Below, piece by piece: positions 30,852 to 61,648 of a DNA stretch of 64,000 nucleotides. Made by a program: the position numbers and the translations under genes. The DNA is from Nitrospirota bacterium (lineage in GTDB: Bacteria; Nitrospirota; Thermodesulfovibrionia; Thermodesulfovibrionales; Dissulfurispiraceae). Numbering within the stretch: the stretch's first letter is position 1; every line of letters begins with the position of its first letter. The notes beneath the pieces were generated by a model. That model did no database searches. It worked only from the letters and a program-made list of their open reading frames with translations, and had not been told where the DNA came from. The stretch is taken from positions 32,001-96,000 of the forward strand of contig CAVPZX010000004.1 in assembly GCA_963710375.1 (NCBI GenBank), written 5' to 3'.

Positions 30852-31598
30852 TTATTTTGTTTTTCCTTCGAGCATCTTTGTTCTTTTTACTGCTGCTGTA
30901 AGGTAATCCTTGAATCTTTCCGGGAAAAGCCACCTTATCCCAAGCTTCTCAGCCCATTTAATCAACCCCTGATCGGCGGTAATCAGCAGGGCGTCAAGCT
31001 CCATTGCAAGGAGCATAAGATCAACATCCTCCTTGCTGTCAATAATCCCTTCCCTTAGAGCCTCCCGATACTTCTTCCTCAAATCCTGTACAATTTCATC
31101 CGGCTTCTTAAGCTCGGCGCTTCGGACCGCTTTTTCAGCAAGCCTCAGCCCTTTGTTGACCCGTTCCCTTATGTCTTCAATAAGCTCATATAAGAGGAAC
31201 GCCGGGCATTTCAGTTCGTGTTTTTTGGGAGGCTTCTGATGGAGAATGACCAGGAGATCGCCCGGAATCTTGTCTCTTTCGACAAAGTGAAGCAGCTCAT
31301 CGAAAATCGATGGCGGCATATAAAACTCAAGGTTGCCTATCTGCGCGGCCAGATAAAGAAAAGTCTCAAGGGCTTCTATAGGAGTGGCGCCGAGGCTTGC
31401 TCTGACGTCGGGATTTACAAACAGGCTCGTATCAAGAACGACTTTCTTCAGCCTGCGCCGGTTTTTTTTGAGATACTGCTCATTAAGATTTTCGTGCTTA
31501 GCGGCAGACGCTGAAAGTGGTTCAGAATCGTTACCGGCATCAGCGGTATTGGATTCTTCCGAAGCGATGTCAATATTTTTAGGCCTTGCAGGTGCCAT
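30852..31598 (-). CDS. RNA-free ribonuclease P (HARP, Aq_880-like PIN domain); start uncertain
   Basis: VLDTSLFVNP, YMPPSI, RERVNKGLRLAE, YREALREGIIDSKEDVD, ADQGL..WAEKLG. Confidence 0.88.
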   Translation of the reverse strand: MAPARPKNIDIASEESNTADAGNDSEPLSASAAKHENLNEQYLKKNRRRLKKVVLDTSLFVNPDVRASLGATPIEALETFLYLAAQIGNLEFYMPPSIFDELLHFVERDKIPGDLLVILHQKPPKKHELKCPAFLLYELIEDIRERVNKGLRLAEKAVRSAELKKPDEIVQDLRKKYREALREGIIDSKEDVDLMLLAMELDALLITADQGLIKWAEKLGIRWLFPERFKDYLTAAVKRTKMLEGKTK

Positions 31599-54451: not shown

Positions 54452-54734
54452 ACGTCGGTGATCACAATATAATACTGGCTGATATATGTTAGACGATGAA
54501 AACATACCAATAATCAGCAAGGACGTAGAGGGGAACCACGGCCGAATTTTTCCATAAAGATTGGAATTAATCCATCTCCATACTGTATAACATTCCTAAG
54601 AAATCCCAATAAATCAAAAAGATAGTACATTGAGTCGTCTGGCATATCTTTTGCTCTCTTCTGCAGAGTTATTGATTATGGCCGTTATAACAGGATACAA
54701 TACACGATCAATAGCCAATATTGAAGGGCACTAT

Positions 54735-55688
54735 ATGACACGTATTACAACCAGAGCACACTTGAGTATCTCGTTCGGCAGAGCCTTGAAATCCGAAATT
54801 AGGATGGGTCTGATTTTGGCGTTGCTGCTTCTTTGCTGCCTTTCTCCATCGGCTGCCGTCGGCGGGGCAACTGAGGATTTGCCGCGCGCTGCGGTCGGCA
54901 TTTCGGAGCAGATGTATCATGATATTGACGCCAGAGATGCCGCTGCTGCTTTTAAAATTTGGATGGCCGAGCTTGCTGATAAGACCGGCTTTAGATGCGA
55001 AACCGTCATGTATCCCGACATTCACAGTCTTGTCGAGGATTTCCAGAAGGGTCGGATTGATATGGCCTCGCTCTCTCCTTTGGCATTTTTTAAATATGAA
55101 ACAGTACTGCAGTCGGACCCTGCAGTTATCGGGGTCAGACATGGAACGGCATCGTGGCGCTACGTTGTTTTGGTTTCAGCCGATCATCCATATGGGAGCA
55201 TCAACTCCCTGAAAGGCCTCAGGCTTGCTATCACCCAAAACGACGATTTGGCGCTCCTCTATCTGAACACCCTTCTGCTCCGTGAGGGTCATCAGGAAAT
55301 GGACCGTTTTTTTTCAACAGTGCTGAACAAGCCAAAACCTTCGCAGACTATCAATGCAGTCTATTTTGGAGCAGCAGATGTCTGCGTGACGACCGAGCAG
55401 GCATTTCAAATCATGACCGAGATGAATCCGCAGGTTGGCAGAAAGCTCAAGATAGTAAGCATATCTCCAGGACTGCTGCAAGGAGTTGGTATATATCGTC
55501 ATTCTTATCCAAAAGACCTCCGGAAAAGGATAGAGGCGGTTTTCCGCAACTTTAAAACATATCCTCGCGGCAAACAGGTGCTGACACTGTTTCAGATTGA
55601 TGATCTTGAAATCCCAAGCAGCCATGATTTTGATGAGACTCGGAAGCTCTACCGCGAATACTTGCGTCTGAAAGGAAAGAAGCAGTGA
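54735..55688 (+). CDS. PhnD/SsuA-like periplasmic binding protein upstream of sensor kinase; start uncertain
   Basis: Signal peptide; VLVSAD...SINSLKG.RLA, AVYFGAADVC, EMNPQVGRKL. Confidence 0.75.
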   Translation: MTRITTRAHLSISFGRALKSEIRMGLILALLLLCCLSPSAAVGGATEDLPRAAVGISEQMYHDIDARDAAAAFKIWMAELADKTGFRCETVMYPDIHSLVEDFQKGRIDMASLSPLAFFKYETVLQSDPAVIGVRHGTASWRYVVLVSADHPYGSINSLKGLRLAITQNDDLALLYLNTLLLREGHQEMDRFFSTVLNKPKPSQTINAVYFGAADVCVTTEQAFQIMTEMNPQVGRKLKIVSISPGLLQGVGIYRHSYPKDLRKRIEAVFRNFKTYPRGKQVLTLFQIDDLEIPSSHDFDETRKLYREYLRLKGKKQ

Positions 55689-55956
55689 GCGCATTAATAA
55701 CAGGAGCGGAACTGTTTCCCAAGCGGGAACGGCTGCTCTGGTGTTTTGCAGTGTTTCTTGTGGCATGCTGTCTTGCGCATTTGCATGTCCTGTCTTAAGC
55801 AGCCGAGTAATCGATGCGTTTCTGCTATATCTCAGGATATTGTTGACACTGCTCAGGTCGGATGGTCTAGCTCCTGTCACCGATTACGACCTGCGATTCA
55901 CGGTGGCTCTCATAGAAGAATACCGAAGGTTGAAGTTGAAAGGGAATAAACTATGA
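55685..55956 (+). pseudogene. Probable internally deleted remnant of a second PhnD-like paralog
   Basis: C-terminus LLTLLRSDGL...DYDL...EEYRRLKLKG aligns by eye with the upstream protein's VLTLFQIDDL...HDF...REYLRLKG. Confidence 0.5.
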
Positions 55957-58682
55957 AAAGCGGTATATTCATTCGGACCTTTATTCTCGTTTTGCTCGTT
56001 CCGAGCCTGGTTATCGTCTTTTTTACACTTCTCTCAATTCCTCGTGAACGGCATGCCCTGTTGGAATCTATGGCGGCACAGTCGAGGGGAATGATATCTA
56101 CAGCAGCCGAAATCAACGCCAACACGTTCGCCTCGAATGACTACGGAGCGATTGTCAACATGGCCGGCCAGATAGTCAGAATCAACCCGGCAGTCCGCTA
56201 TCTGCTGATCGCCCGTTCCGATGGTCCGTGCATTGTGACTTTTCAAGAGAAATGGGAAGAGCATCAATCTGGAGATGGACTCTGCACCGCTGCATTAGCA
56301 TCAGGGAACGGGATTGCGGAAAGCAATCCTGTGACACGGGAACGTGCCTATATATTTACCTATCACCTGAATTACTCCGGGATTGAATGGGGATTTGCCC
56401 AACTCGGAATGTCGGCAGATGCATACGATGCCGGGATGAGAAGCATCTATGTAAACATCGTGCTCATAGCTACGACAAGCATTGCCGTTGCAGCTCTGTT
56501 AGCCTTCCTGTTCGCCAAGCAGCTGACAAATCCACTGCTGCATCTGCGTGCGACAACAGACCGTATCATGCAGGGGGACCTCACTGCCCGCGCTGATGTT
56601 AGGAACTTTGATGAGATAGGCATGCTCGCAATATCCTTCAACGCAATGACTGAGTCTATGATTGCTTCGCAGATCGCGCTCAAGAAGGCGAAGACTGCAG
56701 CGGAAGCGGCAAATGTGGCAAAGGGCGAGTTTCTGGCTAACATGAGTCATGAAATCCGCACCCCGATGAACGGCATAATGGGGATGACCGGTTTGCTTCT
56801 AGACACAGGGCTTTCTGAGGAGCAGAGGAACTATGCCGAGATGTTGCGCTCAAGCGGCGAGTTGTTGCTGGGCCTGATCAACGATATCCTTGACTTCTCC
56901 AAGATAGAGGCAGGCAAACTGGAGATAGAGACAATAGAGTTTGATCTGAGAAACACGCTTGAAGAGACTGCTGAGTTTATGGCCTTGAGGGCCTATGAAA
57001 AGGGTCTTGAGTTAATATGCCGGATAGACCCCGGCGTCCACACATTCCTTATAGGCGACCCTGGCCGGCTTCGCCAGGTATTAGTGAACCTGATAGGGAA
57101 TGCCATCAAGTTCACCTCAGTGGGCGAGGTGGTTATCGAAGCAGTGACGGAATATGAGAGAGACGGTCAGATAGCGGTGCGTTTCAATATAAGGGATACC
57201 GGCATTGGTATAGCGGAAGACAAACTGCCTTTATTGTTTGACAGTTTTCAGCAGGTTGATGCCTCGACATCGAGGAAGTTTGGCGGCAGCGGCCTTGGGT
57301 TGGCAATATCGAAACGTCTGGTTGAACTAATGAACGGCAGGATTGGGGTTGAAAGCATAGAAGGGAAGGGTTCCAACTTCTGGTTTACAGCAGTGTTCGA
57401 TAAGTGGAGCGTGCCGGACAGTAGTAAAGTGCCTCCATTTGCCGATATCAGCGGGGTGAGGATACTGTCGGTAGACGACAATGCGGTGAACCGCATCGTA
57501 ATTGCAGAGCAGATGAAGTCGTGGGGAGTGCGCCATGCCGAGGCCGGGGGAGCTTTAACGGCAATGGAGATGCTCCATGCTGCTCAAGCTGAAGGGGACC
57601 CTTTTAGGGTTGTAGTTACTGATATGCAAATGCCTGGCATGGATGGCGAAGCCCTTGCCAGGGCCATCAAGGCAGACCCTGTTTTGAGGGACACTTTGCT
57701 GATTATGCTGACATCCAGTGGAGTGAGGGGAGATTCAAAGAGGTTTGCGAGCCTTGGATTTTCCGCATATCTTACCAAACCTGTAAGGATGTTCCAACTG
57801 CACAACTGCATAGCCGCAGTCCTTGGTGGGAGCTGTCTGCATGAAAAGGAGGAAGCCGCTATTGTTACGACGCATTGGCTTCGTGAGGCATCCAGGCAGA
57901 ATGCGCGCATTCTACTGGTGGAGGATAACAAAGTGAATAAACTGGTGGCAGAGGGCATTCTGGGCAAATTGGGGTTTATTGCTGACACTGCTGACAATGG
58001 CCAGCAGGCGATCAATATGCTGGAAGCCGCTTCTTACGACATAGTCTTCATGGATGTGCAGATGCCTGTTATGGATGGGTATCAGGCGACCATGGCTATC
58101 CGGGGCGGCAAGACAAAGGCAGCGAATCCCAATGTACCAATTATTGCAATGACAGCCCATGCCATGACGGGTGACAGAGAGAAATGCCTGCAATGTGGGA
58201 TGGACGATTATATCTCAAAGCCGATCTCTCCGAGGAAATTGTCCAAGGTGCTCGAAAAATGGCTGCCACAGGCGCGGGTCAAGTTGCCGGCTGCAACTGA
58301 TACGACCCATGATAAGACAGCAGCGGCAGTAGAAGCATTGCCGGTCTTTGACTATGAGGGGCTAATGGAGCGCATAATGGATGACAAGGGTTTGGCCGGA
58401 ACAATCGTTACGGCATTCATGAAAGAAATACCCTGGATGGTTGATGACCTCAGGGTGCAGATAGCGCGGGGCGATGCGGGACTTGCGGGCAGACAAGCCC
58501 ACAAGATCAAGGGGGCAGCGTCCAACACAGGATGTATGGCAATGAGCGCCATAGCAGCTGATATGCAGAAGGCCGGAGAACAAGGGGAAATGGAGACACT
58601 GATTGCACTTATGCCTGAGCTCGATAGCCAGCTTGAGTTACTGAAGGCTAAAGTCAAAGACTCGGGACTATTAACATCTTAA
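55953..58682 (+). CDS. Hybrid sensor histidine kinase (periplasmic sensor-HAMP-HisKA-HATPase-REC-REC-HPt)
   Basis: [29 protein letters not shown], two receiver domains (DMQMP, DVQMP), AHKIKGAA. Confidence 0.93.
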
Positions 58683-58700
58683 TGATATGATAGATAATAG

Positions 58701-58729
58701 TTGACTTATGCGCTCAAGTTTTATATAAT
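58701..58729 (+). promoter_or_regulatory. Near-consensus sigma70 promoter
   Basis: TTGACT-N17-TATAAT. Confidence 0.8.
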
Positions 58730-58735
58730 TGAATT

Positions 58736-58961
58736 GGAGAGAGGGGGACTCTCTCTCTGACCTTTCTCCATGTAAGGTGCTCGGTACGGGAGAAAGGAAC
58801 CTCGAAAGAGGCGAAGGGACTGCAGAAGACAGCCCCGGGTTAGCTGCCGGAAATGAAGCAATGCGGTATCGGCGGCTAACCAAAGAGGTTACCAGGCGTG
58901 TTCTGGCAACCTTTAAAAAGTGAGGTAGGCGGCTTAGGTGCCATCTACCTCTTGTTTTTTT
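58736..58961 (+). ncRNA. Candidate structured non-coding RNA of unknown family
   Basis: Lies between the promoter and an intrinsic terminator; six tandem hairpins plus the terminator stem; no convincing ORF. Confidence 0.65.
58922..58961 (+). terminator. Rho-independent terminator
   Basis: GAGGTAGGCGGC-TTAGGT-GCCATCTACCTC followed by TTGTTTTTTT. Confidence 0.8.
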
Positions 58962-59203
58962 GTAGTGGGCCAATTTGTCGCACCCGATGAAAAAGGTATG
59001 CGCATACCAGTCGACGGGCCAAAAAGTGTCCTTTTAAAATTCATCCTTAATCAATCGAAGAAAACAAAGACAAGGCATACTTCAAAATGTATCCCATTAA
59101 CAGCCGGGTTGAGGCCTGGCTCAAAGGAGAGTTGGGGATATAGTTAACGCAAAGATAACATTGCTGTAATATAGCGGTAACGTTCGTTTGTTATAAATAA
59201 TGC

Positions 59204-61648
59204 ATGGCTAAATTTTACAAGGCCGACCTGCATGTGCATTCAAGCCATTCCAACAAGCCCTCAGTGTGGGCGCTGAGAAAGTTTAATTGTCCCGAAAGCT
59301 ACACATCTCCGATGTACATTTATAATACCGCCAAAAAGAAGGGGATGGATTATGTGACCATAACAGACCATAACTCCATTGGCGGCGCTCTCGAGATAGC
59401 CCATCTCCCCGGCGCATTCATAAGCGCTGAAATGACAACCTACCTCCCCGATGACGGGAGCAAGCTGCATGTGGTTGCCCTGAACATTAATGAAGATATT
59501 TTTAATGATCTGATGCATTTGAGGACAAATATATATGATCTGACCGGATACCTGCGGCAGCACAATATCGTGCACTATATAGCCCACCCTCTTTATGACA
59601 TGAACGAGCGGCTCTCTGTTGTCACGATAGAGAAGCTCCTCCTCCTCTTTGAAGTATTTGAGACGAAAAACGGTTCGAGGGCCAAACGCTACAGCAGGCT
59701 GATTGCGAACATGCTCTCCTCGCTTACGAGGGAAAAGATGGAACAACTTGCCAATAAGCACGGCATTGTACCATACGGTGAACTTCCCTGGATAAAATCG
59801 GTCGTTGCAGGCTCTGACGACCATAGCGGTTTCTTCGTCGGAAGGGCATACACGGCGTCAAAAAGCGGAGAGACCCTTGAGGATTTTATCAAATCGATCA
59901 CGGAACAAAAGACATGGGCTGCAGGCGACGACGGCGATGCGTTGACCCTCGCTCACAGCATTTACGGCATCGGCTACCGTTTTTTCAAGGAGCGTTTTGA
60001 TACTAAGAAAGGCAGTTCTTTTCCTTTCATCAATGCACTGCTTAACAGGGTGTTCAACTCGCACCAGGAGAAGTCTTCTCTCATCGATAAAATTAATCTT
60101 CTTATCAGGAAAAACATCCCCGAGATGTACAGCGGTTATGACGGAAAAACGTTCGAAGAAATCCTTGACCGGGAAGCCAGGCTATTGTTGAACGATGCTA
60201 AATTCCTCGAGACCATCAACACCGCCAGTATAAACAGGAAGGTGTTTACTGTTACGAGCTATCTTGCAAACAGGCTTATATACATCTATACTGAGCGGTT
60301 GACCCGTATGCAGCTATCCACGGGTATTCTGAATATTGCAAATTCATTGAGCACCATAGGCTTCGTTCATCTCCTGGCATCTCCTTATTATATTTCTTTC
60401 CATCACCAGCACAGAAGCAAACAGTTGATCAAGTCCCTTGAAGAGGAGTTCCTGCCGGACAGCAAAGCGGGAGACAGACAGAAGATTGCACTCTTTACCG
60501 ATACGCTCCATGAAATCAACGGTGTTGCAATGACCATAAAAAGACTAATCGAGACAGCAAGAAAACAGGGTATAGAGTTAGTGGTTATCACTTCAACCAA
60601 TGAAGAAACGGGCTTCAAAGATGGTGTAATGAACTTCAAATCCATCGGCGACTTCGCTCTTCCGGAGTACCCGGACCTTAAGCTCCACTTCCCGCCAATT
60701 CTCGATATCATAGATTATTTCGAAAAGGAAGAATTCAGCAGGATACATGTGAGCACGCCTGGAACACTCGGTCTCTTAGCCCTTTTCATTGCCAAACTTA
60801 TGTATATGCCTATATCAGGCACTTATCACACCGATATCCCTCAGTATGTAAAGAGTCTCACCAATGATACCTTTCTGGAAAATGTTGCCTGGAACTATAT
60901 GATATGGTTTTACAACCTGATGGAAGAGGTGATGGTCCCTTCATCAAGCACCAGAGAGCAACTCATTCAAAGAGGGCTCGCAGCCGGAAAAGCAAAACCG
61001 CTGCCCAGATGGGTAGATACGGATATATTCTCTCCTGCAAAGAAGGACCCTTACCTCTGGCGCAGATACGGGTTGGATGACTCCGTCAAATTCCTTTATG
61101 TCGGAAGGGTTTCAAAAGAGAAGAATCTTGAGATACTTGCCACATCTTTTATGGCCATTATAGATGCCGGGAATACATGCGATTTAATTATCGCGGGTGA
61201 CGGACCTTACAGGAAAGAGCTTGAGCAGATGCTGCAAGGGTATCCGGTGCTGTTTACCGGCTTCCTTTCGGGTGCAGAATTGCATACCACCTATGCGTCA
61301 TCGGATGTTTTTGTTTTTCCGAGCACTACCGATACATTCGGTAATGTAGTGCTTGAGGCACAGGCATCCGGTCTGCCGGTTATCGTCTCTGACGAAGGGG
61401 GACCGAAAGAGTTGATCCTGGATGGCAGAACAGGCATAGTAGTAAAGGCCCACAGCAGCCGGGCACTGATTGACGCCATGAGCTTCTTCTTAAGAGACAG
61501 GCTCGTCATATCCCGGATGGGGATGGAAGCGCGTTATTTTACCGAAAACAGCGGAATTCGTGCCAACGAAGCATACTGTACCATACTCCGTAGCAATTCT
61601 ATAAGTGGAGAACTATGTCCCGCGCAGGGAAACCCGGTACAGGCATAA
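59204..61648 (+). CDS. PHP-domain plus GT4 glycosyltransferase fusion
   Basis: DLHVHS, ITDHN, AHP, GSDDH; C-terminal NGVA, YVGRVSKEKN, FPSTTDTFGNVVLEAQASG. Confidence 0.88.
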   Translation: MAKFYKADLHVHSSHSNKPSVWALRKFNCPESYTSPMYIYNTAKKKGMDYVTITDHNSIGGALEIAHLPGAFISAEMTTYLPDDGSKLHVVALNINEDIFNDLMHLRTNIYDLTGYLRQHNIVHYIAHPLYDMNERLSVVTIEKLLLLFEVFETKNGSRAKRYSRLIANMLSSLTREKMEQLANKHGIVPYGELPWIKSVVAGSDDHSGFFVGRAYTASKSGETLEDFIKSITEQKTWAAGDDGDALTLAHSIYGIGYRFFKERFDTKKGSSFPFINALLNRVFNSHQEKSSLIDKINLLIRKNIPEMYSGYDGKTFEEILDREARLLLNDAKFLETINTASINRKVFTVTSYLANRLIYIYTERLTRMQLSTGILNIANSLSTIGFVHLLASPYYISFHHQHRSKQLIKSLEEEFLPDSKAGDRQKIALFTDTLHEINGVAMTIKRLIETARKQGIELVVITSTNEETGFKDGVMNFKSIGDFALPEYPDLKLHFPPILDIIDYFEKEEFSRIHVSTPGTLGLLALFIAKLMYMPISGTYHTDIPQYVKSLTNDTFLENVAWNYMIWFYNLMEEVMVPSSSTREQLIQRGLAAGKAKPLPRWVDTDIFSPAKKDPYLWRRYGLDDSVKFLYVGRVSKEKNLEILATSFMAIIDAGNTCDLIIAGDGPYRKELEQMLQGYPVLFTGFLSGAELHTTYASSDVFVFPSTTDTFGNVVLEAQASGLPVIVSDEGGPKELILDGRTGIVVKAHSSRALIDAMSFFLRDRLVISRMGMEARYFTENSGIRANEAYCTILRSNSISGELCPAQGNPVQA

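Follow-up and report, generated by a model that had tools for sequence, protein, structure and literature searches.

The RNA gene and its locus

The window (the whole 64,000-nt stretch of DNA analysed here, from a contig of a Nitrospirota bacterium of the Dissulfurispiraceae) carries on its forward strand, between a hybrid histidine kinase gene and a glycosyltransferase operon, a promoter followed by a chain of seven hairpins, P1 to P7, the last of which belongs to a predicted terminator (Table 1). An earlier note on this DNA had proposed the promoter TTGACT-N17-TATAAT, the consecutive hairpins and the terminator with its U-tract, and we found all of them in place. The promoter has 11 of 12 consensus matches and ranks first among the six promoter-like sites in positions 57500-60000, the hairpin arms start at 58736/58749, 58761/58789, 58800, 58816/58830, 58838/58870, 58886/58903 and 58922/58944, and seven T at 58955-58961 make up the U-tract. 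The minimum free energy (MFE) of the folded locus is -101.5 kcal/mol, compared to -74.7 +/- 4.4 kcal/mol for 200 shuffled sequences (z = -6.06), none of which was as stable (0/200). A simple terminator scan did not list the plus-strand terminator that the fold and the alignment do show, the internal loop in the terminator stem being the probable cause. The gap to the next gene is 241 nt, in line with the ~240 nt given before.

Table 1. Positions of the RNA gene, its parts and its context in the window.
Feature	Position	Strand	Remarks
Seven-hairpin ncRNA, ~226 nt	58736..58961	+	Start read from the promoter (58732-58736); fold, alignment, covariation
31-bp palindrome (11-bp arms, 9-bp spacer)	58694..58724	.	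Overlaps the promoter; candidate operator; left edge of conservation
Sigma-70-type promoter	58701..58729	+	-35 TTGACT, -10 TATAAT, 17-bp spacer
P1, purine/pyrimidine stem; loop usually purine-rich (GGAA/GGGA type)	58736..58756	+
P2, 9-bp stem, variable apical part	58761..58797	+	6/9 pairs changed on both sides
P3, 4-bp stem with GNRA tetraloop	58800..58811	+	GNRA class kept in 40/41 copies while the letters vary (five variants)
P4, 6-bp stem, 6-7-nt loop	58816..58835	+
P5, 12-13-bp stem, variable apical extension	58838..58881	+	7/13 pairs changed on both sides
P6, 10-bp stem with internal mismatch; strongest covarying pair	58886..58912	+
A-tract, P7 stem (58922-58951) and U-tract: predicted intrinsic, probably bidirectional terminator	58913..58961	+
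PhnD-like binding protein and hybrid histidine kinase (context)	54630..58682	+	With the RNA, replace two small genes of relatives
Left-over 3' end of the small gene preceding the glycosyltransferase operon in relatives	59052..59140	+	Right edge of the replacement

A search of the whole window against Rfam 15 at gathering score returned a tRNA only, and just miRNA/Vault noise appeared over the RNA locus at E < 10, which bears out the earlier failure to match this RNA to a known family; tmRNA, 6S and an SRP match are present at other places in the genome. Likewise, 60 related loci gave nothing at gathering score. The window copy is almost certainly a real, stand-alone ncRNA gene with its own promoter and terminator.

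Since the genome has no match to bacterial class A RNase P RNA or rnpA and does have a PIN_5 (HARP) gene (window ~30894-31445, minus strand; G000:C4:62894-63445), one might take this RNA for the degenerate remains of an RNase P RNA after a switch to protein-only RNase P. The finding of rnpB in 0/24 family relatives, compared to 7/16 other genomes of the order, fits such an origin and suggests a protein-only RNase P across the family. A review states that, outside Aquificae, rnpA/rnpB are retained as well by most bacteria with HARP (PMC10941002). The RNA gave no Rfam RNase P match at E < 10, nhmmer detected no match to rnpB from the same order (7 genes) even at E = 100, no long-range covariation was found and the distribution is patchy and multicopy. 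With neither model, nhmmer nor covariation support, this origin is largely refuted and is the least probable of all those that we considered.

Distribution of the RNA family

Homolog searches yielded 57 copies of the RNA; once fragments and copies at least 97% identical had been removed, 41 non-redundant ones were left, which are 63-97% identical. Using blastn, the element was found in 4/9 same-genus genomes and in 0/31 other relatives, while a covariance-model search detected it in 10 of 68 family genomes, restricted to two genera: 5/10 genomes of the window's own genus (g1, window genome counted) and 5/8 genomes of a second genus (g12) that holds most of the genome copies. These copies amount to 16 full and 2 partial ones, and a single genome (G064) has four full and two partial copies. 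The covariance model R2 gave no full-length match in 150 other genomes of the order, where it returned five weak matches of 21-26 bits (terminator-like where inspected), and 150 other genomes of the phylum contained no full-length match either. An exact degenerate pattern searched in all species genomes gave 9 matches, all titled Nitrospirota and one of them Dissulfurispiraceae, and the same pattern in metagenomes gave 41 loci, every one of which was confirmed by the covariance model. A weak match upstream of a sigma-factor-like ORF (L034) was dropped when it scored 15 bits with the better model. A 215-nt weak match of 29.8 bits (L038; G007:C4:718091-718305, minus strand) has a terminator like that of the RNA and a stem loop rich in purines, and is possibly a distant relative or an unrelated RNA.

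In the literature that we searched, the supplements of large motif surveys being outside it, we found no published description of the seven-hairpin RNA and no RNA study of the host lineage. The RNA is an uncatalogued ncRNA family of narrow distribution, hosted by uncultured Nitrospirota.

Structure and coding potential

In an alignment of 55 distinct rows that was fitted to the covariance model, 95.8% of the cells pair and 30 of the 60 base pairs changed on both sides; neither value was reached by any of 500 shuffles, and slid controls gave 41-57% paired cells and 9-15 two-sided pairs. An unfitted alignment of 16 sequences still showed 13/60 two-sided pairs, again with 0/500 shuffles reaching this. 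Cells with G-U (237) outnumber those with A-C (48) on the plus strand, an excess that indicates selection on the plus-strand RNA. The top MI-APC pair lies in P6 (GC in 27 and AU in 13 of 41 sequences), and the 25 best-scoring pairs gave no clear sign of long-range or pseudoknot covariation; with 41 sequences, the power is low. Conservation is 89% in paired columns compared to 73% in unpaired ones, about two thirds of the classified columns are paired, and the longest conserved accessible run is 4 nt. The structure is under selection at the RNA level.

Two ORFs, of 64 aa on the plus strand and 100 aa on the minus strand, overlap the window copy. Among the 41 copies, the longest ORFs vary in frame, start and length on both strands, indicating that the 64-aa ORF is incidental, and none of them is conserved on either strand. 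Conservation following the codons of the 64-aa ORF, which the earlier note had set against conservation of base pairing, is thus not what we observed. The view taken there, a stand-alone ncRNA of an undescribed class, gained support from the homologs, the covariation, the conserved promoters and the negative Rfam and ORF searches.

Promoter and expression

A promoter pattern was detected ahead of 41 of the 53 copies that have enough upstream sequence, and it comes in two types, which differ in the inverted repeat that surrounds a 9-bp spacer. The window type has a palindrome whose 11-bp arms flank a variable core: in 14 of its 17 distinct promoters, 8-11 of the 11 arm positions are symmetric, in one more it is 9, and in two only 4. 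The second type is seen at L039, L040, L061 and other loci. Within the window's genome, the palindrome is unique (35 bits, compared to 18 for the next-best site), so that a regulon sharing it in this genome was rejected. The palindrome of the first type might serve as an operator or as the core site of a recombinase; as an operator, it would let a dedicated regulator repress the RNA.

In 4/4 metatranscriptome runs, contigs of relatives cover the body of the RNA, lying within 58743-58960, and those of two studies start at 58743-58749, excluding the conserved promoter. In another set, contigs of both this RNA and the 6S-like RNA described below were assembled in 3/4 runs; run X10 gave no contig. 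Such assembled contigs of relatives, which cannot give strand, ends or level, are a weak hint that the transcript may be discrete and abundant, and their absent flank coverage is uninformative because the flanks differ between relatives.

The dedicated-looking palindrome, the intrinsic terminator with its 3' U-tail and the existence of sibling copies would all suit a family of Hfq-type base-pairing sRNAs with a short or refolded seed. Among sRNAs, sibling copies are frequent (PMC4211561). Hfq was found in 9/10 RNA-bearing genomes, the exception being 74% complete; however, its presence in the hosts is uninformative because 55/68 genomes of the family have it. No seed of at least ~7 nt is visible, since conserved accessible runs never exceed 4 nt and hence offer none for base pairing, and most of the molecule is paired. 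We consider an Hfq-type sRNA unlikely. Hfq was not found in the genus g34 (0/8 genomes).

Genomic context

Flanking genes differ among the genomes that carry the RNA. The neighbours of homologs were tabulated over 47 loci, from which twelve near-duplicates had been left out beforehand. Of the 39 loci that extend far enough, 18 have a convergent gene nearest downstream, 14 have one on the same strand and 7 have none. The 14 same-strand cases and the ORFs overlapping the window copy are what one would cite for a cis-acting leader or attenuator, or for a small-peptide mRNA such as that of a type I toxin. Yet the downstream genes are unrelated and mostly convergent, relatives with an empty site exist and the ORFs are inconsistent among the 41 copies; on the same lines, we found no conserved small toxin ORF on either strand, and recurring nearby ORF families are limited to at most 8/47 loci. 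A leader or peptide function is therefore highly improbable. As for the downstream glycosyltransferase operon, for which an attenuator had been suggested, it is present in 9/9 same-genus genomes, and in 8/8 relatives evaluated (8 of 9 loci, L180 being left out) another gene and not the RNA precedes it, which speaks against this suggestion.

The small gene found ahead of the operon in these 8 relatives survives in the window as its last 90 bases, and 5/8 of them have an acyl-CoA ligase within 1.5 kb. This remnant and the arrangement in the relatives indicate that the binding protein, the kinase and the RNA came in a replacement of ~4.6 kb.

Considering the adjacent BarA/GacS-like kinase and the six GGA motifs within the first 120 nt of the RNA, which we counted as well, the earlier note had entertained a CsrA/Rsm sponge, which would be under the control of that kinase. 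A GGA is usually present around the P1 loop and csrA exists in this genome, where it sits between what we take to be a flagellar hook gene and a fliW-like gene. The other observations disagree with a sponge. The copies have 2-7 GGA each with a median of 1 fully unpaired (41 copies), as in the window copy, where one of 6 is fully unpaired in the MFE fold. A csrA gene was found in 0/8 g12 genomes, including ones that are 97-100% complete and hold 1-3 full copies of the RNA, and csrA is present in 4/10 RNA-bearing genomes. The kinase scores 514.8 bits with the BarA model, below the cut-off of 890. It has about ten further paralogs in this genome, and it does not lie upstream of the other genome copies of the RNA, one of which has an unrelated PAS kinase in that place. 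We thus regard a CsrA sponge as very improbable.

Across whole genera of the family f1, csrA was not found (g12 with 0/8 genomes, g33, g39 and others). The C-terminal 0.7-2.0 kb of the kinase recurs about ten times in the genome with 87-96% nucleotide identity (blastn with window positions 55953-58682 and 11 other matches in the window genome, G000), and the sensor N-terminus is unshared. This pattern points to a kinase family that expanded recently, with shuffling of domains or gene conversion.

The regions that contain the RNA are variable and often rich in IS, a genome may have as many as four full copies, and several copies are placed among housekeeping genes. Neighbouring genes include IS21, IS66, IS110, IS200/605, IS3 and HTH-bearing transposases, integrases, PIN, ParDE, RelE and a methylase, and genes for transposases, integrases and toxin-antitoxin systems abound in the wider neighbourhoods of copies in two genomes (G063 and G064). 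The labels ISNCY/IS481, fliW and rny are presumptive, as we assigned them by reading the sequences. The most recurrent neighbour protein family, a transposase, occurs in 8 of the 47 loci, and no partner protein accompanying the RNA was found in these loci. Three pattern scans of viral contigs gave 0 matches, phages gave none, and the two plasmid matches are at chance level. By eye, the aligned ends show no terminal inverted repeats or target-site duplication, and no exact RNA-only empty site was seen. The idea of an orphan RNA from a mobile element, which had also been raised, is partly borne out by the often IS-rich sites and the 4.6-kb replacement, and weakened in that no element-encoded partner protein was found.

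Association with a second, 6S-like RNA gene

In 11 of the 47 loci, a 6S-like gene lies upstream of the RNA on the same strand, within ~600 nt, and such a gene was never found downstream or on the opposite strand; related genomes are non-independent samples for this linkage. Another 36 loci, including the window copy and all five g1 genome copies, have no 6S-like neighbour (6 of these 36 have less than 400 nt of upstream sequence), and remnants of the middle part of the cassette were detected upstream in 4 further loci. The canonical 6S was rejected as the neighbour: the gene in that place is a second, divergent one that is 6S-like and has a promoter of its own. It matches the distal arm of the Rfam 6S model with 22-31 bits and, since the gathering score is 46.4, is detectable in E-value mode only. 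Its predicted fold consists of a closing stem, a central bubble and a distal stem, followed by a long 3' hairpin that is conserved with a variable interior. In the window's genome, the canonical 6S (54.6 bits) is on another contig and the 6S-like gene is on another contig than the RNA.

The 6S-like family occurs in 30/68 family genomes and 37/151 order genomes. Because 21 of these 30 genomes are without the seven-hairpin RNA, the 6S-like gene does not need it. Where checked, with matches in other families excluded, the 6S-like family is distinct from canonical 6S. The 30 family genomes have 1-5 model matches each (for example G000:C1:117388-117555; L151, L127). Two weak matches of 39-43 bits (L175, L177) lie just upstream of an apparent 16S rRNA start and are probably due to chance.

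The 11 linked 6S-like genes group in one clade, together with one unlinked member in a 46-tip tree (support 0.97) and with one cassette remnant in a 56-tip tree (support 0.91), and this clade is nearly always followed by the RNA or a remnant of it; the linked RNA copies are found in both main clades of the RNA tree. This grouping suggests an ancestral two-RNA cassette, and in the simplest history such a cassette would erode and leave solo copies like that of the window. Hitch-hiking may have preserved a linkage that arose in a single ancestral event. Through deletions, P1, P2, P3 or P6 came to be joined directly to an intact 6S-like core, and one metatranscriptome contig has a joint resembling these fusions. 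At L035, L042, L071, L083 and L043, deletion derivatives join helix base to helix base, and P3 is also joined to P7.

Pairing between the two RNAs was no better than between shuffles (3 pairs tested). A CRISPR-like reading of the spacer between them was rejected, since a simple scan showed no array in the genome and the spacer is cassette-only. Upstream of five cassette copies (L028, L041, L061, L088, L093), we noticed a divergent family of small ORFs of ~90 aa with paired cysteines, a hydrophobic C-terminus and no Pfam match.

Possible function

We tentatively propose, as a reading that falls somewhat short of an even chance, that the RNA is a decoy that binds a protein in trans; the predicted partner is RNA polymerase or a factor associated with it. 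The RNA would be a stable, mostly double-stranded molecule recognised by its shape. In an ancestral cassette it likely stood second, after the divergent 6S-like RNA gene, and solo copies such as that of the window would have lost the 6S-like gene. The points that we count in its favour are the pair changes on both sides, the stronger conservation of stems than of loops, the GNRA class kept in P3, the linkage with the 6S-like gene and the metatranscriptome contigs. Taken separately, a mode in which the RNA would bind a protein instead of base pairing is slightly more likely than not. The choice of RNA polymerase, which is favoured because of the ancestral link to the 6S-like gene and so comes from guilt by association, is rather doubtful. 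Against the decoy acting on polymerase, 36/47 loci are solo and the RNA is without the central bubble of 6S. Stronger conservation of stems than of loops is equally expected from slow compensatory evolution, and the fusions that delete 5' helices suggest that these helices are dispensable in some copies.

The main rival to the decoy is a selfish or addiction-type RNA module, in which one RNA would neutralise the other or a host function, or else a strongly transcribed passenger spread by IS-driven rearrangement, with no host benefit. The patchy, multicopy presence in both genera (5/10 and 5/8 genomes) with its decayed copies, the IS, integrase, toxin-antitoxin-type and methylase neighbours and the arrival of the window copy in a 4.6-kb replacement are all compatible with it. 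So is the linked 6S-like clade, which the RNA or a remnant nearly always trails while solo RNAs are common; solo (orphan) antitoxins are common too. Conversely, no protein family occurs in more than 8/47 loci and the one that reaches this is a transposase, a conserved ORF is absent from both strands, the RNA does not pair with the 6S-like RNA, matches to viral contigs or phages are missing with two chance-level ones to plasmids, and several copies lie amid housekeeping genes. We find such a module fairly unlikely.

A more specific possibility, to which we give a low probability, is a protein-free two-RNA module that moves horizontally, in which the 6S-like RNA would capture sigma70 RNA polymerase and the seven-hairpin partner would either bind polymerase or counteract the 6S-like RNA. 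If true, RNAs that modulate polymerase would gain a new class, and wetland Nitrospirota would have a regulatory or addiction cassette made of RNA alone, in as many as several amplified copies per genome.

Coming back to the trans-acting decoy, a family that travels with a divergent 6S paralog is a concrete candidate for a further class of polymerase-binding RNAs, and even without polymerase binding it would be an uncatalogued ncRNA family beside a second uncatalogued, 6S-like one. Its reach is limited by the narrow distribution, the uncultured hosts and a function that is predicted.

Comparison with known RNAs

To our knowledge, the RNAs that bind bacterial RNA polymerase are few: 6S, Ms1 and CoRP. 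Like 6S RNA (SsrS, RF00013), the RNA described here is a stand-alone structured gene of similar size, found beside a 6S-like paralog. However, 6S is one rod (~180 nt) with a central bubble, whereas this RNA is a chain of seven short covarying hairpins with a patchy and multicopy distribution. The 6S covariance model gave no match at E < 10 in positions 58600-59250, and the RNA has no sequence similarity to canonical 6S or to the 6S-like gene. Tandem and sibling 6S genes have been described, including in Bacillus and Legionella (PMC7726162, PMC4211561).

With Ms1/CoRP of Actinobacteria, it shares being lineage-restricted, intergenic, structured and unlike 6S, and their binding of polymerase is a precedent for what is predicted here. 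According to PMC11077062, CoRP and Ms1 are RNA-polymerase-binding RNAs unlike 6S, and CoRP is a processed RNA of 516 nt. Unlike them, the present RNA occurs in variable regions and in several copies; it gave no Rfam match, CoRP being compared by description.

The resemblance to CsrB/RsmY/RsmZ lies in the multiple hairpins, the own promoter and terminator, the sibling copies and the decoy logic, whereas the few unpaired GGA and the hosts without csrA set it apart, as would, judging by the adjacent kinase, the lack of a BarA/GacS link. By the features tested, the RNA is outside the 6S, Csr/Rsm, RNase P, riboswitch and type I toxin families.

Comparative genomics has also brought to light orphan classes of stand-alone ncRNAs such as the raiA motif, OLE and similar ones. 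The present family is far narrower than these, with no multi-branch or pseudoknot covariation detected and without an Rfam match, and resembles them in being stand-alone and covarying, with a conserved promoter and an orphan function.
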